DNA of 15,135 bases from a virus (taxonomy: Duplodnaviria > Heunggongvirae > Uroviricota > Caudoviricetes), in the IMG/VR virus record IMGVR_UViG_2721755498_000002, one strand, 5' to 3'. Both the position numbers and the translations under genes were made by a program. This document shows, piece by piece, positions 997 to 15,135 of this stretch. The notes under the pieces were generated by a model that was given only the letters and a program-made list of their open reading frames with translations, made no database searches and was not told the origin of the DNA. Numbering within the stretch: position 1 is the first letter of the stretch; every line of letters starts with the position of its first letter.

Positions 997-1192
997 TACG
1001 TATCCTTATACCTGAAATCTTCGCAAGTATGCCTGGCCGCGAGATTATGGCACACTTGTCCGGTTAACTCTCGTCTCATACAGGTAACACAAACGTGAAA
1101 ATCCTTGTTGATGAAAAAAATGATGATTTAATTTATTGATATAAAAGGATTTATATCAGCACGTGTCCACGTAGTGACCACATTTTCGAGTT

Positions 1193-1236
1193 ACAGATAA
1201 CACAAAGCCCGTTTTCACGGGCTTTGTGTTATCTGT
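1193..1236. terminator. perfect 19-bp inverted repeat (ACAGATAACACAAAGCCCG / CGGGCTTTGTGTTATCTGT) with a 4-6 nt loop; possible bidirectional terminator or protein-binding palindrome
   Basis: Arms at 1193-1211 and 1218-1236 are exact reverse complements. Lies just downstream of the - strand cassette ending at 1264. No strong U-tract on either strand, so terminator function is uncertain. Confidence 0.35.
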
Positions 1237-1263
1237 GATTGTGGCTAAGCCACATGATTTATG

Positions 1264-2156
1264 CTATTTCCAGTTACAAGCAGCTTGAAGTGGTTTTAGC
1301 GCGTTTGACAGGCCGTTTAAATTGAAAGTTGCACTTACAGGGCTCTCATTATAAGGAGTTATTTTTGTATACATTTTGTTTGAGTTGGCTAGTTTTCGGA
1401 TGAAATCAATGTCATTACCTTTATAAAAAACAGCCTTTGTATCTGTAGATACTAGCCAGTTTCGCTCAACTGCTTTCTGTTTATCAAGACGATAAAGCAT
1501 GCTGGTTTGTTCAAGGCCTAAATATACATCCCAACTAAGAAATACTTCGGTTTTCTTTTCTCGGCAAGCTATAAACAGAGTGGGAGTAACCGCTTCTCCA
1601 AATGGAGTTCTGATATAATCATCACTTTCTAACGATAAAATTACATTTTTCGAATCATCAATTGGCGATGTAGTAATGGATGTGTGCCATTTTCCTACAT
1701 CTGTGGCTTTCTCTAATTTTGATTCAGCTTGAACAGCTTTATCCTGTGGGAATAGTTTATCGTAGCAGTTTAGTCTGGCTTCTTTATCATTTTCTGCTCG
1801 GCATTTAGATATCTCAGAAAGATTTGGTTGCTGAGCCTCTGTTGTTACTGGCTTTTCCGTTTTAGATTTTGAGTTTACAGATGGAGTAAATGTTGGAGAA
1901 AAAAACGATCATAACAAGATAAACGTCTGTCATCATCTTTCTCATCAGGGCATTGATCTCTGCTTTCGAATTTTTCAGCAACTTTCGTTCGAGTCGGTTG
2001 TATTGACTTATCGTAACAAGAAAGTCTGTCTTTATTATTTTCTATTGCTCGGCACTGGAGTACTGCATTGAAGTTATTATGTTCAGTTGCTGCGTGAACA
2101 GGCAGTACACTAATTGATATAAATGATGCACCTATAGAAAAAATTATATTTTTCAT
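1264..2156 (-). pseudogene. secreted Cys-repeat protein gene split by a frameshift in an A7/T7 homopolymer (ORFs 1875..2156 and 1264..1908)
   Basis: The 93-aa ORF starts with a signal-peptide-like MKNIIFSIGASFISISVLPVHA. Its frame stops at 1875-1877, while a second frame is open from 1908 down to 1264 with no start codon until 1500. The two frames overlap across the A7 run at 1899-1905; one extra base would fuse them into about 297 aa. The motif RL[SN]CYD[KR] occurs three times across both halves, which supports a single original gene. Confidence 0.5.
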
Positions 2157-2160
2157 TTTG

Positions 2161-2493
2161 TTATCCTTTTGGTTTAGTAAGAAATACTAAAATTCCGATA
2201 ATGATATCGCCAATAACCCATAAACTTCCAATGGTAATTAAACCTAAGCCTGTACCAATAACTGCACCGGCTTTTTCGGCATCGGATGTAGCATTATTTA
2301 TTATTTCACTAGTGCCTCCCAGTCCAACTAAAAGCGTATAGATCATAAAAATATTAAATAATATAAATATCCACTTAATGAGCTTTCCAAAAAATGAACG
2401 CTTAAGTTTTTTTATTTGTTTACCGCAAGCAGGGCAATACAATGCTGAATCGCTCACCTCTTTCTGGCATTCAGGACATTTGATTAATGCCAT
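2161..2493 (-). CDS. zinc-ribbon domain membrane protein (N-terminal CPEC-x13-CPAC, then two hydrophobic glycine-rich helices)
   Basis: 110-aa ORF with a strong RBS (AAGGAGG) upstream of the ATG at 2493. Stop is 4 nt from the start of the downstream signal-peptide ORF, suggesting an operon. AT-rich. Confidence 0.6.
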   Translation of the reverse strand: MALIKCPECQKEVSDSALYCPACGKQIKKLKRSFFGKLIKWIFILFNIFMIYTLLVGLGGTSEIINNATSDAEKAGAVIGTGLGLITIGSLWVIGDIIIGILVFLTKPKG

Positions 2494-2753
2494 GTAATCC
2501 GCCTCCTTTGGATCAATACGAGTTGATATTTGTTACAAAACATTTTGATTTTATCAGATTTTTTTTATTGATAAGTGTCAATTGATTAGCTGGTATAGAG
2601 TGAGACATATAGAAGGGCAGATCTGTATCAGTAGTGATGCAAAAATCCCACAGTTTCATGGAATTTTTGCATTTAGAGCCGTGAGATAGGGTGCCTTATC
2701 GACCTTACCCTGGCAACCGATTGACGGGGGATTACTCCCCCGTCGCGGTTTCC

Positions 2754-2894
2754 TTACTGCTTACACTGTAAGAACGCCGCAAACTCCGCTCCCCAGAAAC
2801 TCATCCGTATTTCGCACAGCGAACCGTGCAACATCCAGATGATGAGGATTACCGTCACGCAGAACGTGATGGCTGTAAGCGATTTTTGCGACAT
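2754..2894 (-). CDS. hok: Hok/Gef-family type I toxin (46 aa: MSQKSLTAITFCVTVILIIWMLHGSLCEIRMSFWGAEFAAFLQCKQ)
   Basis: Hand translation of the - strand. Single N-terminal transmembrane helix followed by the SLCE[IL] and E[LFV]AAF[LM] motifs typical of Hok proteins (compare HokA ...WMIRDSLCELHIKQESYELAAFLACK... as recalled). AAGGAG RBS 8 nt upstream. GC-rich hairpin (2723-2744) just downstream. Not in the ORF track because it is under 60 aa. Confidence 0.7.
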   Translation of the reverse strand: MSQKSLTAITFCVTVILIIWMLHGSLCEIRMSFWGAEFAAFLQCKQ

Positions 2895-3084: not shown

Positions 3085-3345
3085 TTAATTCTGAGGTAAA
3101 GGCAAACTCATCTGATTGTTTCCCCTGTGTGAAGCTGGTAGCACATGCCACGGGATACCTTCTGAAGAGTGAACGCCGGAGGCGTGTTTCGATGTGAATT
3201 TATGGAAAGCTTCCAGTGTTGAGAAGCATACGCCGCATTCCAGATTGTTACACTGGTAATACTTTTGCCGCACGGTGTTTGAATCATTTTCCGGACGACT
3301 TGTGCGGATACGGGCAGATGCGCCACAAAGCGGACAACGGAACAT
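3085..3345 (-). CDS. ogr: Ogr/Delta-family zinc-finger late transcription activator
   Basis: N-terminus MFRCPLCGASARIRTSR...YYQCNNLECGVCF matches the C-x2-C-x22-C-x4-C Ogr zinc finger (P2 Ogr begins MFHCPLCQHAAHARTSR as recalled). AGGGAGG RBS 5 nt upstream of the ATG. Confidence 0.85.
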   Translation of the reverse strand: MFRCPLCGASARIRTSRPENDSNTVRQKYYQCNNLECGVCFSTLEAFHKFTSKHASGVHSSEGIPWHVLPASHRGNNQMSLPLPQN

Positions 3346-3536: not shown

Positions 3537-4559
3537 ATGGGAAGAGATATAACGCTGTACCCTAAAAAAGCAACTAGAAACGAACTTAAAAATTACCTTG
3601 AAAATTTAGGTTTTAAAAGGTGTAAACATTTGTGGGAATGGCCCCAAGGAACGTTGAATTACTCTTGGTTTGATGATACGGACTTCAAATCTACAGATGG
3701 AGTTTCGGCTGATATATATCCTGTTTCAAATGACGAATTACACATATCTGGTAATAAATGGGCATTGCATGTGCGTAATTTATATAGCGCTAGTTGGCAT
3801 GATGTAAAAATGCTTAATGATGTTCTAAAAGGCGCAAGGAGTCTTTTTGGTGGAACACTTATAGGTGATTATGGGAAAAATAGGTACGCTCCTCTATGGA
3901 AGGATTCTAGTAGTCCGATCAGTCGTGGCATTTCTTCAATATTTAATCATGTCCATCATGAGATTTCCGCTGTTAAACATGCCTTACCTGAACCTTCTAT
4001 TAAATTAAACCTACCGGAAGATGGCGGTTTATCCGAATACTTTGATTACATGCAATGTATGGATCCCAGTAGAGTTATATATAATGGATTAGTACCTTTT
4101 GCGGTTGCTATGTTTGAATACTTTTTCTCTAGAGCTTTTCAAATACTTATAAAGTACGATCCTTTCGCAATAGCAAAAAGAACATCGTATAAGCAAAAAG
4201 TTGATTTTGATATTCTGCTTGAGATAGAGAAAGGAAATATTTCAATAGAAAGTGTTATTGCAAGAAATTACACTTTTCAAAACTTAACCCACCTAAACAA
4301 AGCATATAAAGAGTGGCTGGATATAGATGTGAGAGCGATTCTTTATAAGAAAAAAAGAATTGGAAAATCAGTTGATTTTCTTGAGAATCGAATTTCTGAA
4401 ATCATACAATATAGACATGGGATAGTTCATCACTTTGAGTTGGATAGGACCTTAAATCGGGATGGATATATTCATATATTAGATGCGATAGAAAAAAGCA
4501 TAATTGAATTTATCCATTACATAGAAGGCAAATACAAATTTAAATTAAATGCGTATTAA
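3537..4559 (+). CDS. hypothetical 340-aa protein; AT-rich cargo gene with a C-terminal HEPN-like R-x4-H motif (YRHGIVHH, residues 292-299); candidate abortive-infection or defence protein
   Basis: Long uninterrupted ORF with strongly AT-biased codon usage, unlike the flanking phage genes. Sits between ogr and D on the opposite strand. Lys/Ile/Asn/Tyr-rich composition. No family recognised by eye. Confidence 0.7.
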   Translation: MGRDITLYPKKATRNELKNYLENLGFKRCKHLWEWPQGTLNYSWFDDTDFKSTDGVSADIYPVSNDELHISGNKWALHVRNLYSASWHDVKMLNDVLKGARSLFGGTLIGDYGKNRYAPLWKDSSSPISRGISSIFNHVHHEISAVKHALPEPSIKLNLPEDGGLSEYFDYMQCMDPSRVIYNGLVPFAVAMFEYFFSRAFQILIKYDPFAIAKRTSYKQKVDFDILLEIEKGNISIESVIARNYTFQNLTHLNKAYKEWLDIDVRAILYKKKRIGKSVDFLENRISEIIQYRHGIVHHFELDRTLNRDGYIHILDAIEKSIIEFIHYIEGKYKFKLNAY

Positions 4560-4679: not shown

Positions 4680-5789
4680 TCACTCTGTTTCTGCTATCCA
4701 TTCCGGGATTTTTGCCTCAAGCTCAAGCTGTGTGGTAAAGCCGCTGTTATCAATGGTGTGCTCGGCTTTCGCAATAATCCAGTCCTGATTATCAATCTCG
4801 CTTTTAAATCCTGTTACCGTGCCATGCATTTCGGGGTAGAGTTCTGCACGTCCACGCACCAGCGTGATGGAAAATAATGCGGCTCCGCGTTGTAGCTGCT
4901 GCCACTTTGCCGCCGCTGCGCGTCTTGCTGCCTGCTCGTTCTGATAAGTCTTGCGTAACACAAACACATTGCCTTCCGCGCCTTCCATATAATCACCTTC
5001 ACGGCTGCTGCTTTTCTCCTTTTTGGGTTTTGGCGGTTTGCGGCGTTTCACGCTGACTTTTTTCTTTTTCCCGTAATTAAGATCAAGCCAGTAAGCGCGT
5101 ACCCCCGTATACGCCTCGCGGTCAGCAATGCGGAACTGATGGCGATCGCCGCTGCTGCGTGTGATGGCGAACGATGGCAACGGCTGGCCCTGTGCGTTCA
5201 CGCCACCGCCGGGCATGATGAATAACAGATTACCGCTTTTTACCGTGGTGATTGCGCCCAGCATTTCCGCCATGCGCGTAAGGAAGGACATGTCGCTTTC
5301 TTCAGTCTGGTCGGCGTGGTCGATTTCGATATCCATCAGCATTTCGCTGATTTGCGGTTTCAGGCTGTACCGATGAGCGATGGCGGATACCACACGTTCA
5401 ACGTTCACATCATGCCAGGACGCCTCACGTTTAACATTAAATTCATCCCGAAAATCTGCGCTTCTGGCTGAAACAGTCAGCCTGTCCGGCGGTCCTTCGT
5501 GAGCGATTTCATCAACAATGTAAGTGCCTTTTTCTGTCAGCGGTTCCCCTTTCCAGCCAATGAGAACCGTCAGACGCGCGCCCCGTGGCGGTAGCTGCAA
5601 CTGGCCATCGGCATCATCCAGCGTGATGGTGAGCTGGTCCGCCTCAAATCCCCGGTTGTCGGTCAGTGACAGGCTCATCAGGCGTTCTGCCACGCCGGAC
5701 AGCGTTTTACCCTCGGCGAGAATATCAAAATCCGGCATTTTCACGGGGTCTGTGCCCTGACTGAGCAATTGCATGGTGGTGTCGGTCAT
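4680..5789 (-). CDS. D: P2 gpD-like tail protein (late control gene D family)
   Basis: The 413-aa ORF is trimmed here to the ATG at 5789-5787 (MTDTTMQLL...), which has a GGGAGGG RBS. Size of about 370 aa, the C-terminal GFKSEIDNQDWIIAKAEHTIDNSGFTTQLELE region, and the context next to a P2-like tail module fit gpD. Assignment is from memory of the family, not alignment. Confidence 0.75.
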   Translation of the reverse strand: MTDTTMQLLSQGTDPVKMPDFDILAEGKTLSGVAERLMSLSLTDNRGFEADQLTITLDDADGQLQLPPRGARLTVLIGWKGEPLTEKGTYIVDEIAHEGPPDRLTVSARSADFRDEFNVKREASWHDVNVERVVSAIAHRYSLKPQISEMLMDIEIDHADQTEESDMSFLTRMAEMLGAITTVKSGNLLFIMPGGGVNAQGQPLPSFAITRSSGDRHQFRIADREAYTGVRAYWLDLNYGKKKKVSVKRRKPPKPKKEKSSSREGDYMEGAEGNVFVLRKTYQNEQAARRAAAAKWQQLQRGAALFSITLVRGRAELYPEMHGTVTGFKSEIDNQDWIIAKAEHTIDNSGFTTQLELEAKIPEWIAETE

Positions 5790-5946
5790 CTGTTCCCTCC
5801 CTGTGCGGCATGGTCGCATGTGCGTGCGGAGGGGGTTACTGCTTTTTGTTGTCGCCGTGGCGGGAGAATAGCGCAGGGGTGAGATTACGCGCGTGGTGGG
5901 TGATGATTGTTGCTGAATCATTTAACGGATACAAGGGGCTGAAGCT

Positions 5947-7131
5947 ATGAGTGAAACTCGTTTTCATGGTGCCCGTGTTACGGAAAATACCGACCTGGTA
6001 ACAGCGATTAACGATGTTGATTCCAGCGTTATCGGTATCGTGGCAACGGCGGATGATGCGGACGCGAAGCTGTTCCCGCTGAACAAGCCCACATTGCTGA
6101 CCCGCGTCAATGACGTGCTGGGAAAATGCGGAACAACGGGGACGCTTTATCGTGCGCTTAAGGCCATCGCAGACCAGGTGAGCACAAAGGTGATCGTCGT
6201 TCGCGTGGCTGAACACAAAGAAGAAGACGGAAAGACGCAGGATCAACTGGTTATCGGTGGTTCTGAGGATGACGGCAGCTATACGGGGATGTATGCGCTG
6301 CTTGTTGCAGAGCAGGATGAAAGCATCGGATACCGTCCGCGTATTCTGGCCGCGCCAGAGCTGGACACGGAGGCTGTAACAAAATCCCTGTGCGTGATTG
6401 CAGGTAAACTGCGCGCGTTTGTGTATGCCTCATGTCACGGCTGTAACACGATGGCTGAGGCGATTACCTATCGCCAGAAATTCAACGAACGTGAGGTGAT
6501 GCTCTTATGGCCGGACTTCATCGCCTACAACCCGAAAAGTGGCAAAAACGAAACGTTCTCCGCGCCTGCCTATGCGTGCGGCCTTCGTGCGTACATTGAC
6601 CATGAGCAGGGGTGGCACAAATCACTGTCCAACGTTCCGGTTAAAAATGTGCTGGGGATGTCGAGGCATGTGTTCTGGTCGTTGCAGGCCGAAGACAGCG
6701 ATGCCAACAGCCTCAACAACAAAGAAATCACGACCATTATTCGTCGCAACGGGTTCCGCTTCTGGGGCAACCGCACACCGGAAACGAACGCCTACATCTT
6801 TGAGGTGTATACCCGAACCGCACAGGTGCTGGCTGATTCAATTGCGGAAGCGCAGTTTGAAACCATCGACAGTCCACTGACGCCTGCGAACGTGAAGGAT
6901 GTTATCAGTGCCATCAGGGCAAAACTGGATTCGCTGGTTACTGCCGGGAAACTGATTGGCGCGGAGTGCTGGTATGACGTGGTGGATAACGGCACCACGG
7001 ATTTACGTCAGGGGCGTGTGCGTATTCGCTACAAATATACGCCCGTTCCGCCACTGGAAGACATGGAGCTTTACCAGACGTTTACTGATGAATTCTTTGG
7101 TCCCGCATTTGCGGTGCTGGGAGGTGCCTGA
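5947..7131 (+). CDS. FI: contractile tail sheath protein (P2 gpFI family)
   Basis: 394 aa. Motifs DADA..FPLNKP, KLRAF, QGWHK, IRRNGFRFWGNRT, YTRTAQV and YTPVPPLE match the P2 FI sheath as recalled. Stop overlaps the FII start (ATGA). Confidence 0.9.
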   Translation: MSETRFHGARVTENTDLVTAINDVDSSVIGIVATADDADAKLFPLNKPTLLTRVNDVLGKCGTTGTLYRALKAIADQVSTKVIVVRVAEHKEEDGKTQDQLVIGGSEDDGSYTGMYALLVAEQDESIGYRPRILAAPELDTEAVTKSLCVIAGKLRAFVYASCHGCNTMAEAITYRQKFNEREVMLLWPDFIAYNPKSGKNETFSAPAYACGLRAYIDHEQGWHKSLSNVPVKNVLGMSRHVFWSLQAEDSDANSLNNKEITTIIRRNGFRFWGNRTPETNAYIFEVYTRTAQVLADSIAEAQFETIDSPLTPANVKDVISAIRAKLDSLVTAGKLIGAECWYDVVDNGTTDLRQGRVRIRYKYTPVPPLEDMELYQTFTDEFFGPAFAVLGGA

Positions 7132-7643
7132 TGGCTGTACCAAAACATCTTCGCTTTTTTACGTTGTTTGTGGATGGTGAAAACGAAGTGGGTAAAGTGA
7201 CATCCGTCACGCCGCCCAAACTGACGCGCAAAACCGACAGCTATCGTGGTGGTGGCATGATGGGGGCGGTAAGTATTGATCTCGGTCTGGACGACTCCGC
7301 GCTTGATGCGAGTTTTGTTATGGGGGGAGCTGTTCGTGCGCTGTTCCTTAAATATGGCGGCACGATTGACGGCACGCTGCTGCGTTTTGCGGGTGAATAC
7401 TACACCGATGCAGAAAGCGATCTGTATGAAATCGAGATGCGCGGACGTGTGACGGAAATTGATATGGGGGAAGCCAAACAGGGCGAAGCCACATCACACA
7501 CTTACGCTGTCAAAAACACCTACTACAAGCTGAGCGTTAACGATCGCCCGCTGTGGGAAATCGACCTGTTGAACCACATCTACCGGAAGGACGGCAAGGA
7601 CATTGTGCCTGACCGTATCCGTTCCGCGCTTGGGCTTGGCTGA
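7131..7643 (+). CDS. FII: tail tube protein (P2 gpFII family)
   Basis: 170 aa, immediately after the sheath gene with a translationally coupled start. Size and position are typical of FII. Confidence 0.85.
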   Translation: MAVPKHLRFFTLFVDGENEVGKVTSVTPPKLTRKTDSYRGGGMMGAVSIDLGLDDSALDASFVMGGAVRALFLKYGGTIDGTLLRFAGEYYTDAESDLYEIEMRGRVTEIDMGEAKQGEATSHTYAVKNTYYKLSVNDRPLWEIDLLNHIYRKDGKDIVPDRIRSALGLG

Positions 7644-7698
7644 TAAGTAATATGCAGGCGGCGCAGTGCGTCGCCTCTGACTGAAAAGGAGACAACTG

Positions 7699-8073
7699 AT
7701 GAAAGACATCGATACTGAAACCCGGAATAACACCGTGGCGGATGATGTGACGGCAGGTGAGGATATGGCTGTCGAACGTGGCGTAAAACTGACCCGACCA
7801 ATTGAGCGTGGTGGCGAAAAAATCACGTATGTGGAGATCACCGGGGCTATTGAGCAGGCTGGATCCCTGCGTGGTCTGTCGCTGTCTGATGTGCTGAATC
7901 TGAAAGCGGATACCATGTTCACGCTGTTGCCTCGCGTGACCTCGCCACGACTGGATGAAGTGATGATTAAAAAAATGTCGTCACGCGATTTTATTCAGTT
8001 GTGCGCTGTGGCTGTAAATTTTATGAGCGAGCCAGACTCTGGCGCGAAGAGCGTGCAGGAGACGGCAGCGTAA
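7699..8073 (+). CDS. E: tail assembly chaperone gpE
   Basis: 124-aa ORF with AAGGAG RBS, located between the tube and tape-measure genes. An overlapping -1 frame ORF follows, as in P2 E/E'. Confidence 0.8.
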   Translation: MKDIDTETRNNTVADDVTAGEDMAVERGVKLTRPIERGGEKITYVEITGAIEQAGSLRGLSLSDVLNLKADTMFTLLPRVTSPRLDEVMIKKMSSRDFIQLCAVAVNFMSEPDSGAKSVQETAA

Positions 8074-8237
8074 TCACCCTGGTGTGCTTTGAGCACATCG
8101 AAGATCTGGTGGCGGATATTGCCGCCATTTTTAACTGGTCGCCCGCCGAAATCTTCATGATGACGCCCGGCGAAGTGGTTAGCTGGCGCGAGCGGGCGGC
8201 ACTTCGCAGCGGGAATGCAGATAATGAAGACTCTTGA
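7699..8237 (+). CDS. E+E': tail assembly chaperone E+E' made by programmed -1 ribosomal frameshift (candidate slip sites A7 at 7969-7975 or AAATTTT at 8016-8022)
   Basis: The -1 frame opens at 7971, right after a TAA at 7968-7970, and runs to the TGA at 8235-8237, overlapping the T start. The E frame stops at 8071-8073. Both heptamer-like sites fall in the overlap. P2-like phages make E+E' this way. Confidence 0.6.
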
Positions 8238-11031
8238 TATCCGGGTCGCTTTCAGCGCCGTTGACAGGCTGACCCGGCCTGCCGAAAACGCCCGCCGCCT
8301 GATGGGGCAGTTTGGTGACTCCATCCAGCGAACGCAGGGGGCGCTCAAAAATCTCGAGCGTCAGGCGCGTTCATTTGAGCGCGCCCGTGACGCTGTCAGT
8401 AAAGCGGATGCGGGCATCGTGAAAGCACGACGCCAGCTTAACGCCCTTAATCAGTTACAACGCACGGGTACAGTGCTCAGCGAAAAACAACAAAAGCTGA
8501 TGCAGCAGTTAAGCACCCGGCTTGAACGCCTGAATGAATCGCGCACACGGGAAATTCAAAAAATGCGGGAGCTTGGCGGAGAGCTGAAACGCCACGGCAT
8601 TTCCCTGACAGGCAGCGATAACACCATCCAGCAGGCCATCAGACGCACCGAACAGTACAACAACCAGCTTGAACGCGAACGGCAGGCGCTTGCGCGTGTA
8701 ACGCGGGCGCGTGAGCGGTATTCGCGCGCGCAGGAAACAGCGGGAAAACTGAAAACAGGTGGTGCACTGGCAATTGGTGCGGCAGCGGCGGGCGGCTATG
8801 CTGCCGGGCGTTTTTTGCAGCCTGCGATCGGGTTCGGCAAAGAGATGTCCCGCGTTCAGGCACTGACGCGAATCGACAAAAACAGCCCGCAGTTTAAGGC
8901 GCTGCGTGAGCAGGCGTTAAAACTTGGCTCTGAAACACAGTTTACTGCGAGTGATGCCGCCAGTGGGCAGAGCTTTCTGGCAATGGCTGGTTTTACTCCG
9001 CAGGCCATTCAGGCCGCATTGCCCGGTGTTCTTAATATGGCGCTGGCAGGTGGCGTCGAACTCGGCGAGACGGCTGATATAGGCTCCAATATCCTCACAC
9101 AGTTCAACCTGACAGCCGATCAAATGGACCGGGTTGGCGATACGCTGACAGCGGCATTCACCCGGACCAATACTGATTTACGCGCGCTGGGCGAAACCAT
9201 GAAGTATACCGGTCCGGTTGCCGCAAAACTTGGTATCAGTCTTGAAGAAGCGGCAGCCATGGCCGGGATGCTTGCCAATAATGGTCTTCGCGGAAGCGAT
9301 GCTGGTACGGCCATGCGCGCAAGTCTGTCCCGCCTTGCATCACCGCCAAAAGCTGCGGCTGATGCGCTGAAAGAGCTGGGAGTGTCAGTTGCTGACGCCA
9401 GAGGCAAAATGCGCCCGATGGAGGATGTGCTGCTTGATCTCTATAAGGCGACACAAAAATACGGACAGGTGGACCAGGTTTCCTTCTTCAAGGACATCGC
9501 CGGAGAAGAGGCGTTCGTTGGTTTGCAGACGCTTGTTGCGGCGGCTGGTTCAGGAGAGCTGCAAAAACTGACCAGAGAATTGCAGGGGGCAAGGGGAGAG
9601 GCCGATCGCGTCGCAAAAGTAATGGCCGATAATCTTGATGGGGACCTGAAAAATCTCGATAGCGCATGGGAAGGTCTTCGTATTCGCATCAGTGATCTGG
9701 TTGACGGTCCGCTGCGTTCTGTCACGCAGTGGCTCACGCGGGTGCTTGAAAAAAGCACCTCGCTGGCGCAGGCCCATCCGGTACTGACGCGCCAGCTACT
9801 GATAGCAGGCGGTGCGTTGCTGGCAATGACTGCAACGATTGGCTCGTTGTCGCTGGTTATTGGGGTGCTTTACGGGAAGCTGGCCACCCTGCGTCTTGGT
9901 TTTGACATTCTTACCCGGTCAATGAATGTCGTCAGGGTGTTGCCTGCGCTGTGGGGAATGGTGACGGGTTCCGTTTCTTTGCTGGGAGGCGCTATCGGGG
10001 CGCTGTTCAGTCCGGTTGGTCTTATCGTGGCTGCGCTTGCCGGAGCTGCCGTTCTTATCTGGAAATACTGGGATCCCATCAGGGCATTTTTTGCCGGGGT
10101 GTTCGGCGGGATTATGGAAAGGCTGACCCCGTTGCGTGAAACCTTTGAACGGTTTGGTCCTGTTTTTGACGCAATCGGAAGCGGGATCAGCCAGGTGTTT
10201 AACTGGTTTAAATCGCTGCTGTCACCGATGGAGTCCAGCAAGGAAACGCTGGATAAATGTACCAGTGCTGGCGAGATATTCGGTAACGTTCTTGGTGGCG
10301 CGCTACAGCTTGTTCTGACGCCTGCAAAAATGTTGCTGGATACGCTGGCGTGGATACTTGAAAAACTCGGTGTGCTTCCGGATGAAGCGGAAAGGGCGAG
10401 AAAGAAAATCGAAGACGCACAGCGTGCGGCCATTCTTCAGGACAAGGTTGCTCTGTTTCAGGGAGACATTGCGAAAATCAATCCGCCGAAGTCTGCGGAA
10501 AATGGCAATGGCACCGGAGGCGATAAACCCAAAGACAACAAACCGCTCACAGACAGCAATACCGGCACGCTACGCAGACTCAGCAAAATTGCTGATAACA
10601 CAGGTAAGCTGGTTGATGAGACAAAAAAACGTGTTGGCCCCGGCGATATTGTCTTTAAGAACCTGCCCCGCGCACTTGCTGTTCGTGGGGAGTGGCAGGA
10701 GCGGAAGATTGCGCAGGTCAGTAAGCCTGCTTCCGCAATCAACATCACACCCGTGGTCCCGGCTCTGCTGCCTCCGGCGCTGGTCCCTGTTGTTGCGGCC
10801 AGCTCCCGCCCGGTGGCGGAGGCCATACGATCGCCAGTGGCATCAGTTCCTGCAACTTCCCGTAACCGGGAGCCTGTTGTCTCCGGATTTGGCGGTGAAA
10901 TTCATGTTCATCTGCATAACGTTGTTACGCAGAATCCCCGCGAACTGGCGAAACTGGTCGGTGAAATGGTCAGGGCAGAGGTGGAACGGCGTGCTCGTGC
11001 CGGACGTGGCAGTTTTTACGATAAAGATTGA
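8215..11031 (+). CDS. T: tail tape measure protein (P2 gpT family)
   Basis: 938-aa ORF with a coiled-coil-rich N-terminal part, a central hydrophobic/Gly-Ala-rich segment and a long C-terminal part. Sits between E/E' and U. The start could be the ATG at 8215 or at 8224. Confidence 0.9.
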   Translation: MQIMKTLDIRVAFSAVDRLTRPAENARRLMGQFGDSIQRTQGALKNLERQARSFERARDAVSKADAGIVKARRQLNALNQLQRTGTVLSEKQQKLMQQLSTRLERLNESRTREIQKMRELGGELKRHGISLTGSDNTIQQAIRRTEQYNNQLERERQALARVTRARERYSRAQETAGKLKTGGALAIGAAAAGGYAAGRFLQPAIGFGKEMSRVQALTRIDKNSPQFKALREQALKLGSETQFTASDAASGQSFLAMAGFTPQAIQAALPGVLNMALAGGVELGETADIGSNILTQFNLTADQMDRVGDTLTAAFTRTNTDLRALGETMKYTGPVAAKLGISLEEAAAMAGMLANNGLRGSDAGTAMRASLSRLASPPKAAADALKELGVSVADARGKMRPMEDVLLDLYKATQKYGQVDQVSFFKDIAGEEAFVGLQTLVAAAGSGELQKLTRELQGARGEADRVAKVMADNLDGDLKNLDSAWEGLRIRISDLVDGPLRSVTQWLTRVLEKSTSLAQAHPVLTRQLLIAGGALLAMTATIGSLSLVIGVLYGKLATLRLGFDILTRSMNVVRVLPALWGMVTGSVSLLGGAIGALFSPVGLIVAALAGAAVLIWKYWDPIRAFFAGVFGGIMERLTPLRETFERFGPVFDAIGSGISQVFNWFKSLLSPMESSKETLDKCTSAGEIFGNVLGGALQLVLTPAKMLLDTLAWILEKLGVLPDEAERARKKIEDAQRAAILQDKVALFQGDIAKINPPKSAENGNGTGGDKPKDNKPLTDSNTGTLRRLSKIADNTGKLVDETKKRVGPGDIVFKNLPRALAVRGEWQERKIAQVSKPASAINITPVVPALLPPALVPVVAASSRPVAEAIRSPVASVPATSRNREPVVSGFGGEIHVHLHNVVTQNPRELAKLVGEMVRAEVERRARAGRGSFYDKD

Positions 11032-11037
11032 GGAGTC

Positions 11038-11532
11038 ATGGCCATGATGATGATCTACGGCATGTTTGTTTTTGAGCTGCGCACATTGCCGCATCAGCAG
11101 TTACAGCAAAACAAAAGCTGGCGGCATGTGAAAAATGAACGCGTTAACCGTTCAGCAAGCTGGCAGTATATCGGCGCAGGTGATGATCGCATCGTGCTTT
11201 CCGGCGTGCTTTATCCTGAAATTACAGGTGGCGAAGTGTCGCTTTCGTTGCTGACCACACAGGCATATACAGGACGCCCCTGGCCTCTGATTGATGGTGT
11301 CGGGCAGATTTACGGCATGTATGTACTGACTGAAACGAATACGACCCGTTCCGAGTTTGATCGCTACGGTAAGGCGAAAAAGATAGAATTTTCACTGACC
11401 CTTGAACGCTGTGATGAGGATTTGCGGGAGCGTCTGCAATCCTCATCGTTCAGTGATATGCTGTCCGGCTTCAAAGATAAGGTCACATCATCCCTTAACA
11501 GCGCGGCCAGTTCAGTTAAAGGACTGTTCTGA
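11038..11532 (+). CDS. U: tail protein gpU
   Basis: 164 aa. MAMMMIYGMFVFELRTLPHQQ...AGVLYPEITGG...WPLIDG..IYGMYV matches P2 gpU as recalled. GAGGAG RBS. Confidence 0.85.
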   Translation: MAMMMIYGMFVFELRTLPHQQLQQNKSWRHVKNERVNRSASWQYIGAGDDRIVLSGVLYPEITGGEVSLSLLTTQAYTGRPWPLIDGVGQIYGMYVLTETNTTRSEFDRYGKAKKIEFSLTLERCDEDLRERLQSSSFSDMLSGFKDKVTSSLNSAASSVKGLF

Positions 11533-11628: not shown

Positions 11629-12837
11629 TTATAAAGAATTGCTACTTTCTAATTCTGGGTTTCTGGATCTATTTTTACAACCTAAATCCGAGTGGTAATT
11701 CGGTATATCGTTTGTCAAATCTTGTTTGATAGCATTAATTAAGATCATTATGTCGAATTTATGCATATCGTCGCCCCCTTCAGACCTTAGATGTTCGGAT
11801 GTGGTGAGTTGAGTCGCTAATTTGCTGTTTGGCCCCCACACAATATTATTTTCGAATTTTCCTTCATGCATTCTGTTATTATATATACAGTATTGTCTAA
11901 TGTTTAATGCACTGGCTAAATGTACAATGGCAGTATCTACAGTTATAACAAAATCAGCATGGCGAACCAATGCAAATGAACATCCGGCATCAGAAAATGG
12001 AGATAGAGACACATTATCCAATCCATTGTGATTAATCTGTTTTCCCATATTAAAAACTATTGTGTGATATCCCTTAAGGTTATTAAGGTAAGCTAGTACT
12101 TTGTTTATCTGTTCATCAGATAAGGTTCTGCTATTCTGAGAGCCATAAGGGTTAAATATAACTAATTTTTTGTTTTTCTTCCTGAATTCATTTGCAACAA
12201 TATTTGCTGGTTCATATATTTTGTTGTCAAAATTAAGCGCTGCAGCATAATTATTATTTTTTATCTTTAGTAAAGATAAAACTTTTTTCATTCTTTCAGA
12301 TGTGTGAATGGAACGATTATCGATTATATTTGTATCAAAAATAGTTACGGCAGGATGATTAAAACAGATAGAGTGTTTAGGTCTAAGTAAATGTAGTGTT
12401 TGCAATCTGGTTATCGCTGTGTTATCAAAATTTGAGAAGTCAACAACAAGATCTACATTCAGTTTTTTTATCTTTGCTTTTAGTTCGTTAAATTTATTTT
12501 TCTCGTAAGATATAAAGGCATCCACGCCAACAATATCAGTAAAGAGGAATGATACTCTTGAAGGTGCTATCACATATACCACCATACCGGATTTTTGAAG
12601 TTGTTTAATAAACCCTGAGGTAACGATGCCGTCACCAATGGCTTGCATGTGCATGAAAATGCACACTGTTTTATAACTATCCGGCTGTAATGATGTTTTC
12701 CTTCTGTATCGCATTTTTAGAAATGCCAGTCTGGCCTTCGTCTTTATCTTTTTTGTTTTAATATTTCGCTGTCTGTTAAGCTGTTTTAATGATGAAATAA
12801 CATTCATAATGGTACCCTGAAATTCCAAATCACACAT
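11629..12837 (-). CDS. glycosyltransferase family 9 (heptosyltransferase-like) protein with a ~45-aa Lys/Arg-rich N-terminal extension; AT-rich cargo gene
   Basis: GT9 hallmarks: N-terminal Gly-Asp motif (MQAIGDGIV), central KKLVIFNPYGSQNSRTLSDEQ, and C-terminal VITVDTAIVHLASAL (compare WaaC VVSVDTGLSHLTAAL as recalled). Strong AT bias. The true start may be the internal ATG (MNVISS...) at about 12807. Confidence 0.65.
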   Translation of the reverse strand: MCDLEFQGTIMNVISSLKQLNRQRNIKTKKIKTKARLAFLKMRYRRKTSLQPDSYKTVCIFMHMQAIGDGIVTSGFIKQLQKSGMVVYVIAPSRVSFLFTDIVGVDAFISYEKNKFNELKAKIKKLNVDLVVDFSNFDNTAITRLQTLHLLRPKHSICFNHPAVTIFDTNIIDNRSIHTSERMKKVLSLLKIKNNNYAAALNFDNKIYEPANIVANEFRKKNKKLVIFNPYGSQNSRTLSDEQINKVLAYLNNLKGYHTIVFNMGKQINHNGLDNVSLSPFSDAGCSFALVRHADFVITVDTAIVHLASALNIRQYCIYNNRMHEGKFENNIVWGPNSKLATQLTTSEHLRSEGGDDMHKFDIMILINAIKQDLTNDIPNYHSDLGCKNRSRNPELESSNSL

Positions 12838-13799: not shown

Positions 13800-14075
13800 G
13801 TGGCTTCTGTTTCTATCAGCTGTCCCTCCTGTTCAGCTACTGACGGGGTGGTGCGTAACGGCAAAAGCACCGCCGGACATCAGCGCTATCTCTGCTCTCA
13901 CTGCCGTAAAACATGGCAACTGCAGTTCACTTACACCGCTTCTCAACCCGGTACGCACCAGAAAATCATTGATATGGCCATGAATGGCGTTGGATGCCGG
14001 GCAACAGCCCGCATTATGGGCGTTGGCCTCAACACGATTTTACGTCACTTAAAAAACTCAGGCCGCAGTCGGTAA
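13800..14075 (+). CDS. insA: IS1 InsA (transposition repressor / N-terminal part of the InsAB' transposase)
   Basis: 91 aa; [43 protein letters not shown] is the canonical InsA sequence. Confidence 0.9.
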
Positions 14076-14497
14076 CCTCGCGCATACAGCCGGGCAGTGA
14101 CGTCATCGTCTGCGCGGAAATGGACGAACAGTGGGGATACGTCGGGGCTAAATCGCGCCAGCGCTGGCTGTTTTACGCGTATGACAGGCTCCGGAAGACG
14201 GTTGTTGCGCACGTATTCGGTGAACGCACTATGGCGACGCTGGGGCGTCTTATGAGCCTGCTGTCACCCTTTGACGTGGTGATATGGATGACGGATGGCT
14301 GGCCGCTGTATGAATCCCGCCTGAAGGGAAAGCTGCACGTAATCAGCAAGCGATATACGCAGCGAATTGAGCGGCATAACCTGAATCTGAGGCAGCACCT
14401 GGCACGGCTGGGACGGAAGTCGCTGTCGTTCTCAAAATCGGTGGAGCTGCATGACAAAGTCATCGGGCATTATCTGAACATAAAACACTATCAATAA
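13994..14497 (+). CDS. insB: IS1 InsB reading frame (expressed as the InsAB' transposase by -1 frameshift at TTAAAAAAC, 14049-14057)
   Basis: 167-aa frame matching canonical IS1 InsB ([27 protein letters not shown]...KHYQ). Confidence 0.85.
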
Positions 14498-14512: not shown

Positions 14513-15135
14513 TGAATCGGTTATCCGGAATGTTTACCGTGCTGAAAAAAATAGGTCTTTGGGATGCAGAACATCCAGTAAGGGGAATTTCTATTCTTTA
14601 TGTATCTCCACGAGAAATGGCGTTCCTGTCACAGAAGGAAGTGGCGCTATTGCTCGATACACTGGAGGGCGACTACTGGCGTGTTGCGCTTTTGTGTTTA
14701 AGCACAGGGGCGCGCTGGAGTGAAGCTTGTAAGCTTCGTGGTGAACAGATAGTTCATAACCGTGTAACGTTTCTTGAAACCAAAAATGGCCGGAAGAGAA
14801 CAGTGCCAATTTCGCAGGCAGTTTGTGAGGCGATCAAAACCAGAGAAACAGGCGGCTTGTTTGAGGTGAAGTACCGGGAATTCTGCCTGGCGCTGAAAAG
14901 AGTTAAGCCCGATTTACCAAAAGGCCAGGCTGCACATGTGCTGCGGCATACGTTCGCCAGCCATTTTGTGATGAACGGAGGAAACATTATTGCGCTTCAG
15001 AAGATTCTTGGTCACGCAACCATTCAGCAAACAATGGCATATGCGCATTTTGCACCGGATTACCTGCAGGATGCGGTGGCCCTTAATCCGCTGAAAGGTG
15101 GCGTAAGTGTCCACGCAGTGTCCACGGGGGATTAA
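14513..15135 (+). pseudogene. int: tyrosine recombinase (phage integrase) C-terminal catalytic-domain fragment; N-terminal part removed at the IS1 junction
   Basis: The frame is open straight out of the IS1 right end. It contains the catalytic R (GARWSEA), H-x-x-R (HVLRHTFAS) and Tyr (TMAYAHF) motifs. About 207 codons, where an intact integrase would be around 330-400. Stop is at the window end. Confidence 0.8.

Follow-up and report, generated by a model that had tools for sequence, protein, structure and literature searches.

We analyzed an AT-rich pair of genes on the minus strand of the phage record IMGVR_UViG_2721755498_000002 from IMG/VR (the window, 15,135 nt, is the whole stretch of DNA examined; coordinates are window positions) and conclude, with near certainty, that a P2-like (P88-like, Peduoviridae) prophage carries it as its terminal cargo ("moron") operon, inside the prophage between the late-gene activator ogr and the attachment site attR. 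The first gene encodes a zinc-ribbon membrane protein, hereafter ZnR, and the second an exported protein of the VasI/TagO family. The cassette is not part of a type VI secretion system (T6SS) apparatus. The best overall reading we can offer, held tentatively and at a little under even confidence, is an accessory operon of a P2-like prophage at the interface of inner membrane and periplasm that protects the lysogen; the structural part of this reading is nearly certain, whereas its purpose part is weak. The cassette and its borders comprise:

1095-1117, plus strand: the first 23 nt of pdxB (GTGAAAATCCTTGTTGATGAAAA), the end of chromosomal homology and the attR-side prophage junction, as read from the sequence
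1264-2156, minus strand: VasI/TagO-family gene, disrupted here; signal peptide, then three helical hairpins (C-x11-C, RLxCYD) and, at the C-terminus, an IalB-like beta-sandwich
2161-2493, minus strand: ZnR gene (110 aa), coding for a CPxC...CPxC zinc ribbon ahead of a membrane hairpin of two helices and ending in an invariant T-x-P-K
2754-2894, minus strand: type I toxin gene of the hok/gef family, situated between ogr and the cassette (Pfam HOK_GEF, 30.1 bits; phrog_251)
3085-3345, minus strand: ogr/Delta late-gene activator of the P2-like prophage (Pfam Ogr_Delta, 52.3 bits), the conserved phage-side border of the slot

The chromosomal edge of the prophage was placed by comparison with Escherichia coli genomes that do not carry the cassette. 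The gene flk occupies positions 1-996 on the minus strand, and in the sampled cassette-free genomes homology to the window ends at 1117, 23 nt into pdxB. A total of 5,189 cassette-free genomes (the 5,425 genomes with any match to the window minus the 236 with the cassette) match this stretch, and every sampled one does so only over 1000-1117, overlapping the start of pdxB. Foreign DNA therefore starts at about 1118, and the prophage is inserted in the 5' end of pdxB; an earlier note on this DNA had opened the AT-rich island at 1040 and thereby included ~78 nt of chromosomal flk-pdxB DNA. The compositional contrast described in that note stands, with a GC content of 0.358 over 1118-2700 compared to 0.51 over 1-1117 and 0.544 over the phage tail genes (4680-11500). 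The note had also placed the pair next to a prophage: the accessory, prophage-linked nature of the genes is borne out, but they lie within the prophage, from ogr to attR, rather than beside it. The gene order is gpD, a 340-aa AT-rich open reading frame (ORF), ogr, hok, ZnR, VasI, attR and then flk. The cassette thus has the properties of accessory cargo in P2-like phages, being located within the att-bounded genome, atypical in composition, variably present, and not needed for structure or replication. The copy of the pdxB start at the junction reads into phage DNA and meets a stop after 14 codons; a functional pdxB must be rebuilt at the opposite end of the prophage, behind phage DNA.

The cassette is widely distributed and variably present. 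It was found in 236 of 5,426 complete E. coli genomes, and a 2.3-kb region that includes it recurs at 93-99.8% identity in the genome records of isolated phages, namely Escherichia phages 500465-2 and PhiR44_2, Citrobacter phage phiSM and Xuanwuvirus P884B11. In Klebsiella phage 3LV2017 the pair sits, at 67% identity, between ogr and an annotated attR. No cassette is present in phage P88, and phage Chuche has a DNA methyltransferase and com genes at this position, which indicates that the interval from ogr to attR is a variable cargo slot. P2-like phages from at least seven enterobacterial genera carry the pair there (E. coli, Klebsiella, Raoultella, Enterobacter, Citrobacter, Pectobacterium and Dickeya). 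Among these phages, phiSM is a functional temperate phage whose VasI-family gene was listed in 2019, on annotation alone, as T6SS-related "virulence" cargo (PMC6456863). Eleven E. coli plasmids also carry the cassette, with matches at ~92% identity. One of the plasmid copies, on the enterotoxigenic E. coli (ETEC) plasmid pCss165 (L189, NC_022333, 7047-9063), is a decayed ogr-hok-ZnR-VasI remnant of a P2-like prophage end in which conserved residues are mutated in both genes and VasI is frameshifted at the same homopolymer run as in the window.

The earlier note had described the first protein, accurately, as a 110-aa protein with a CPxC...CPxC motif and two transmembrane (TM) helices, and a match to Pfam Zn_Ribbon_1 and an AlphaFold2 model agree with that description. 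Its two knuckles are CPEC (residues 6-9) and CPAC (20-23); C6, C20 and C23 are invariant in the family alignment, C9 is nearly so, and the score against Zn_Ribbon_1 (PF13240; 31.2 bits, cut-off 25) places it among the zinc ribbons. The AlphaFold2 model has a small beta ribbon followed by long helices at 34-66 and 71-105. Residues that flank the helices on the N- and C-terminal sides are basic, whereas those of the loop are acidic, a charge pattern that predicts a cytoplasmic location for the ribbon and for both termini. ZnR is, by these predictions, a small inner-membrane protein with a putative periplasmic loop of ~18 residues. It appears to be related to DrpB (YedR), a small divisome-associated membrane protein of E. 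coli, although the relationship is remote. The NCBIfam DrpB model matches 28 of 36 ZnR family members at E ≤ 0.01 (best 5e-7), all below its cut-off, and weak precomputed matches to PF28000 (DrpB) are on record. The family profile aligned ZnR 30-109 with K-12 DrpB 12-92, setting T106 of ZnR opposite T89 of DrpB; T106, P108 and K109 are invariant in the ZnR family. ZnR is thus predicted to share the DrpB-type features of a two-TM hairpin in the inner membrane, a short periplasmic loop and a conserved threonine in a C-terminal T-R-P motif, and the two proteins have in common RS..GKL..W.F ahead of TM1 and T-R-P-K/R after TM2. ZnR differs from DrpB in having an N-terminal zinc ribbon, in being phage-borne and in its pairing with a secreted protein. 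We regard ZnR as a zinc ribbon fused to a probable distant relative of the DrpB/YedR membrane hairpin. It belongs to PHROG family phrog_6586, of unknown function, and a sequence search of the PDB found no solved relative of either the ZnR family or the VasI-like family.

The VasI-like ORF starts at 2156, 4 nt past the ZnR stop codon, with a predicted Sec-type signal peptide (...VLPVHA, followed by ATEH). All of the features reported for this protein in the earlier note (its position 4 nt downstream, the signal peptide and the three RL[SN]CYD repeats) are present. Two of the repeats, RLSCYDK (2007-2027) and RLSCYDR (1905-1925), share one reading frame, and RLNCYDK (1756-1776) lies in another; the repair suggested in the note, addition of one A at 1899-1905, matches the intact 297-aa allele of other E. 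coli (WP_000789404), which has one extra A (A8 compared to A7). The cysteine pairs of the three modules (35/47, 69/81 and 119/131) have a uniform C-x11-C spacing, a further pair (C198/C294) lies in the C-terminal domain, and the alignment shows complete or nearly complete conservation of all of these pairs. The structural model contains helix-turn-helix modules, and the hairpin cysteines, as placed in the sequence, would allow disulfide formation. The repaired protein scored 89.6 bits against Pfam VasI (PF11319; cut-off 26.5), and the model matched three separate stretches, the best of which (residues 118-296) covers the entire 184-position model; together with the uniform cysteine spacing, this argues that the repeats are not due to chance. 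The protein is thus an exported one, as far as its predicted signal peptide indicates, with N-terminal Cys-pair hairpins and a C-terminal domain that has a Cys pair of its own. This likeness to VasI/TagO (PF11319, TIGR03360, VCA0118) extends to Pfam membership, export, the C-x11-C RLxCYD hairpin and the same C-terminal domain; the RefSeq name is "type VI secretion system-associated protein TagO". In contrast to VasI/TagO, which has one hairpin, the phage protein has three; it is borne by P2-like prophages together with a zinc-ribbon membrane partner, and its score against the T6SS-associated equivalog TIGR03360 (75.9 bits) falls under the cut-off of 124.2. The earlier note had recognized neither family; the secreted protein is now assigned to Pfam VasI/RefSeq TagO, and the membrane protein to a zinc ribbon with a DrpB-like hairpin.

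The C-terminal domain of the modeled VasI-like protein matched the IalB-like fold (PF06776/PDB 3dtd), and its score against the IalB model was 20.6 bits, just under the 22.1 cut-off. IalB, the invasion-associated locus B protein of Bartonella, lacks the RLxCYD hairpins, and the shared fold gives no mechanism. VasI/IalB-fold proteins are also present in strictly lytic T4-like phages. A Foldseek search of viral structures matched uncharacterized phage proteins only, and the protein belongs to phrog_1848, a PHROG family of unknown function.

The VasI family is large: an exhaustive profile search at E ≤ 1e-10 gave at least 3,503 clusters (50% identity). The top 148 representatives included 107 secreted proteins with a single hairpin, two anchored by a zinc ribbon plus TM helix and seven with several TM helices; none of the anchored forms carried an RLxCYD hairpin, as if anchor and hairpin were alternatives. 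Three RLxCYD motifs were found in none of the 148 and two in only one, and the three-hairpin form corresponds to the cluster of this protein itself. Fusions of zinc ribbon, TM helix and VasI domain are represented by P0121, P0223 and P0299. Among more distant VasI-domain proteins (P0166, P0174, P0175, P0180 and P0286), there are N-terminal cytochrome c (CxxCH) fusions, and others have two or three TM helices ahead of the domain, indicating that the VasI domain is used in several periplasmic architectures unrelated to T6SSs.

The two genes of the cassette are closely coupled. VasI lies directly downstream of ZnR in 55 of 101 evaluable ZnR loci, and all 55 have P2-type markers nearby (gpD, ogr or hok) and a ZnR that is at least ~66% identical to that of the window. 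Among 64 intact ZnR-VasI pairs, 49 have a 4-nt gap and eight a 4-nt overlap, and dN/dS ratios of 0.12-0.38 for both genes indicate purifying selection. The order gpD-ogr-ZnR-VasI is kept down to 42% VasI identity (Pectobacterium). This recurrence upholds the operon-like coupling and the accessory, non-housekeeping role proposed in the earlier note, and the possibility that the two genes never co-occur elsewhere falls away. Of ten sampled contexts of VasI-like genes, nine mark the right end of P2-like prophages. T6SS genes were found neither in nor beside any of the ten loci, and the window contains none. Five of the ten contexts have the arrangement ogr-ZnR-VasI, with a VasI-like protein of three hairpins in Klebsiella, two in Pectobacterium and one in Klebsiella/Raoultella, Enterobacter and Dickeya. 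The VasI gene stands alone in two (P2-like prophages of Salmonella and Pantoea), one context is a Zn-ribbon-TM-VasI fusion and one is chromosomal (Photobacterium). In the remaining one, an E. coli P2-like prophage at the tamB/ytfP site, VasI adjoins a different two-TM zinc-ribbon protein, of the TM2 family. This partner (locus L017, 6830-7126, minus strand) is a 98-aa protein that combines a zinc ribbon with a TM2 domain, and its gene is convergent with the VasI-like gene, which encodes two hairpins.

Although the ZnR-VasI coupling is real and selected, the two genes are not strictly bound to each other. Solitary ZnR genes are found, among other taxa, in Pantoea (between cueR and copA), Haemophilus, Pseudoalteromonas, Psychrobacter, Brucella and Rhodobacteraceae, and when one genome per species is considered, VasI is adjacent in three of 35 ZnR loci, a count that probably misses L054, where the gene is cut. 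In 16 of the 46 ZnR loci without VasI, a different ORF with a signal peptide follows directly after ZnR; in P2-like contexts this partner is often a ~110-aa "PRYDVExHC" protein or an Excalibur-domain protein. In P2-like phages of other Gammaproteobacteria (L047, L048, L172, L182 and L183), a ~110-aa secreted protein begins 3-10 nt after ZnR or overlaps it by 3 nt; this alternative periplasmic partner contains the motif "PRYDVExHC...GG" in duplicate and matches no Pfam family. We read these arrangements as indicating that a membrane anchor with a cytoplasmic zinc ribbon repeatedly accompanies, or takes the place of, the N-terminal part of the VasI domain. Among the Pantoea loci (L008-L012), one strain (L010, 7001-8846) has the integrase end of a P2-like prophage right beside ZnR, and a Pantoea P2-like prophage at another location (L194) carries VasI without ZnR. 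On the sequences at hand, it is plausible that ZnR was captured from a Pantoea-like chromosome by aberrant excision, and the orientation of the genes would fit such an event.

We propose, with low certainty, that the purpose of the cassette is to protect the lysogen at the level of the envelope against contractile injection devices, namely superinfecting phages and/or T6SS attack; an exclusion or envelope function is the most plausible guess, and still a guess. ZnR and the VasI-like protein would be co-translated from a promoter of their own and would act together at the periplasmic face of the lysogen's inner membrane, ZnR presumably as the constant membrane partner and the VasI-like protein as a periplasmic effector or specificity module, held at the membrane by its hairpins. 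One possible route would be a DrpB-like triggering of envelope stress signaling (Rcs, Psp). Three lines of published work together make envelope exclusion or defense our best guess. The variable hotspots of P2-like phages hold anti-phage cargo, largely genes that exclude other phages (PMC9122126, PMC13586616). The exported VasI protein of Vibrio cholerae (VCA0118) is dispensable for Hcp/VgrG secretion, but full T6SS killing requires it (PMC3166118). DrpB localizes to the septal ring, suppresses an ftsEX deletion and activates Rcs (PMC7648144, PMC11709261); when overexpressed, it activates the Rcs phosphorelay via the periplasmic domain of RcsC, with T89 required, and also induces Psp (PMC11709261).

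Known exclusion systems provide further points of comparison. In the T4 Imm/Sp exclusion pair, adjacent genes encode inner-membrane and periplasm-facing proteins that block injection by contractile-tailed phages; the likeness to ZnR-VasI is purely architectural. P2 old, tin and fun(Z), and the defense hotspots of P2-like phages, resemble the cassette in being variable, compositionally atypical cargo among conserved genes, present or absent in close relatives. They differ from it in their slots (gpA-gpQ or the tail region rather than ogr-attR), and the cassette proteins have no similarity to catalogued defense proteins.

A number of observations weigh against the proposal that the cassette is an envelope-protection operon built on a DrpB-like partner. 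ZnR scored 22.1 bits against the curated DrpB/YedR model (NF038392), compared to a cut-off of 50, and the comparison of the ZnR family with the single K-12 DrpB sequence was not significant (hhalign probability 6%; hmmsearch 5 bits), so the DrpB link rests on the NCBIfam model matches together with the shared motifs. The effect of DrpB on Rcs is an overexpression phenotype of a distant relative, and V. cholerae VasI promotes attack rather than defense. At E ≤ 0.01, the PADLOC library gave no match for ZnR, the VasI-like protein or the neighboring AT-rich ORFs, and the P2 hotspot papers (PMC9122126, PMC13586616) make no mention of this slot, ogr, TagO, VasI or zinc-ribbon genes. A scan for consensus promoters and terminators yielded no excess over shuffled sequences and nothing upstream of ZnR, leaving a promoter identified by eye. 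Since they share their orientation with gpD-ogr and lie downstream, the genes could be expressed late in the lytic cycle rather than in the lysogen. ZnR stands alone in 31 of the 35 species-level loci, as VasI does in the Salmonella and Pantoea prophages, and the P0121 fusion comes from a single contig and may be an accidental in-frame deletion.

Several rival explanations draw on the same evidence. The cassette might supply a T6SS helper by lysogenic conversion, with the VasI-like protein raising T6SS killing by the host and ZnR unrelated or auxiliary. The Pfam VasI score well over its cut-off, the RefSeq name, the requirement for VCA0118 in killing rather than secretion and the listing of the phiSM copy as virulence cargo all fit this explanation, yet the shortfall against TIGR03360, the absence of T6SS genes from the ten contexts, nine of them at prophage right ends, and the tight coupling to ZnR and the zinc-ribbon fusions, neither of which has a counterpart in T6SS clusters, make it unlikely. 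A function in the phage life cycle, in which late expression after gpD-ogr would serve to manipulate the envelope or divisome in lytic growth, for instance for lysis timing, a division block or the prevention of progeny injecting into lysing cells, strikes us as similarly improbable. It would account for the co-orientation with gpD-ogr (only ~110 nt separate ogr from ZnR in Klebsiella, Pectobacterium and Dickeya), for the long-term retention of the position across divergent P2-like lineages, for a DrpB-like membrane part that points to the divisome and for the VasI/IalB-fold proteins of strictly lytic phages; set against this, the cassette is dispensable for the phage, given its absence from P88 and the other genes in Chuche, its composition is unlike that of the backbone and, in E. 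coli, the hok locus and a candidate promoter intervene between ogr and the cassette.

The two genes might instead be independent cargo that shares a slot, their adjacency an inherited accident; ZnR would then be a widespread small membrane protein with a role of its own, and the VasI-like protein an unconnected secreted one. Solitary ZnR genes in Pantoea, Haemophilus and many Proteobacteria, solitary VasI genes in Salmonella and Pantoea prophages, and the unrelated secreted proteins that follow ZnR where VasI is missing speak for this explanation, but the 4-nt gap or overlap in 57 of 64 pairs over deep divergence, the recurrent Zn-ribbon-TM-VasI fusions and the analogous pairing with a TM2-family zinc-ribbon membrane protein leave it doubtful, at about the same low level as the previous two. 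Far less probable is a toxin/immunity or abortive-infection pair, a possibility raised in the earlier note. A small membrane protein and a secreted protein do lie together in a mobile element, by hok and a HEPN-like ORF; however, no toxin, nuclease, pore-former or immunity domain and no PADLOC match was found, the VasI-like fold is a binding-type beta-sandwich, and each gene occurs alone with no signs of addiction. We rejected this candidate, which is without any supporting domain. In a more specific version of the envelope-protection proposal, which we consider a long shot comparable to the T6SS-helper explanation, ZnR-VasI would represent an uncharacterized class of phage envelope defense in which a DrpB-like membrane protein positions a VasI/IalB-fold protein at the inner membrane, on its periplasmic face. 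There, the VasI-like protein might intercept contractile tips (P2-like tails, T6SS spikes) and/or switch on Rcs/Psp. If this version were true, T6SS-armed cells would use the same device in the form of their accessory protein TagO/VasI, which has been without an assigned role since at least 2011, and the combination of a zinc ribbon, two TM helices and a variable secreted partner that other P2-like phages display would constitute a general modular exclusion system. A 2026 review lists the function of TagO as unknown (PMC13584744).

Both proteins are already in RefSeq under family names, and a phage-borne VasI gene has been noted in print. Four points appear to be undescribed in the searchable literature: that the partner is DrpB-like, that a ZnR-VasI operon is conserved between ogr and attR, that the hairpins form a series from one to three, and that this VasI branch is unlinked to T6SSs. 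P2-like phages, and not T6SS clusters, are home to a large enterobacterial branch of VasI, which in nearly all cases is paired with or fused to a zinc-ribbon membrane anchor, and ZnR-VasI offers a simple two-gene entry point to the role of the VasI domain. The label "TagO / type VI secretion" on prophage genes is accordingly poor ground for inferring T6SS function or virulence, and the ogr-attR slot joins the variable cargo sites of P2-like phages. For this window the message is modest: the cassette is common and annotated, and its VasI gene is broken here.

The disruption of VasI and the candidate expression signals of the cassette map as follows:

1899-1905, minus strand: A7 homopolymer (T7 on the coding strand), 8 in intact alleles; site of a -1 frameshift, from alignment to L001
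2502-2508, minus strand: Shine-Dalgarno sequence AAGGAGG, 8 nt ahead of the ZnR ATG, read from the sequence
2548-2581, minus strand: candidate promoter with TTGACA (2581-2576), an A8-bearing spacer and TCTGAT / TGATAAAAT, identified by eye
1199-1228, minus strand: GC-rich hairpin acacaaagcccg-tgaaaa-cgggctttgtgt, 36 nt past the VasI stop, read from the sequence

The window differs from an intact copy (strain 266917_2) at two positions in 1.75 kb, both 1-nt shortenings of homopolymers. One is the coding run, after which the frameshifted VasI ORF stops at 93 codons while the remainder, including RLNCYDK, continues in another frame to 1264; if this frameshift is real, only ZnR and a 93-aa N-terminal fragment of the VasI-like protein can be made here. 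The other lies ~65 nt upstream of ZnR, in the spacer of the candidate promoter (2559-2566), where the window has A8 and most copies have A9. The T7 state occurred in seven of 17 sampled copies; strain 504211 (annotated "frameshifted"), several older viral contigs and pCss165, the last on a ~92%-identical haplotype, have T7; among 234 complete E. coli genomes, the exact T7 version was present in two, compared to 57 with T8. Among near-identical copies, the promoter and coding run lengths were 9/8 in five, 9/7 in two, 8/8 in one and 8/7 in one, and thus vary independently. Both changes may be real mutations, inactivating or phase-type (contingency), or they may be homopolymer sequencing errors. 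The hairpin at 1199-1228 is the likely terminator of the cassette; the scan reported only a smaller neighboring hairpin at 1240-1254, and the terminator role of 1199-1228 is therefore our inference.

Other parts of the prophage also carry cargo. The 340-aa ORF (3537-4559, plus strand) occupies a second AT-rich island (GC 0.34), which lies between gpD and ogr. Its score against Pfam HEPN_RiboL-PSP is weak, at 22.5 bits compared to a cut-off of 28.4, and neither PADLOC nor PHROG gave a match; it could be a moron of the abortive-infection type. A third island (GC 0.33), directly after the tail gene gpU, contains a 402-aa ORF (11629-12837, minus strand) with a very strong match to phrog_36326, of unknown function, and marks another prophage cargo slot. 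Toward the end of the window (13800-14497 and 14530-15135), IS1 (insA/insB) lies beside truncated tail-fiber genes and is followed by a tyrosine-recombinase-like ORF (integrase) that continues past the window. At this end the prophage looks rearranged or decaying.

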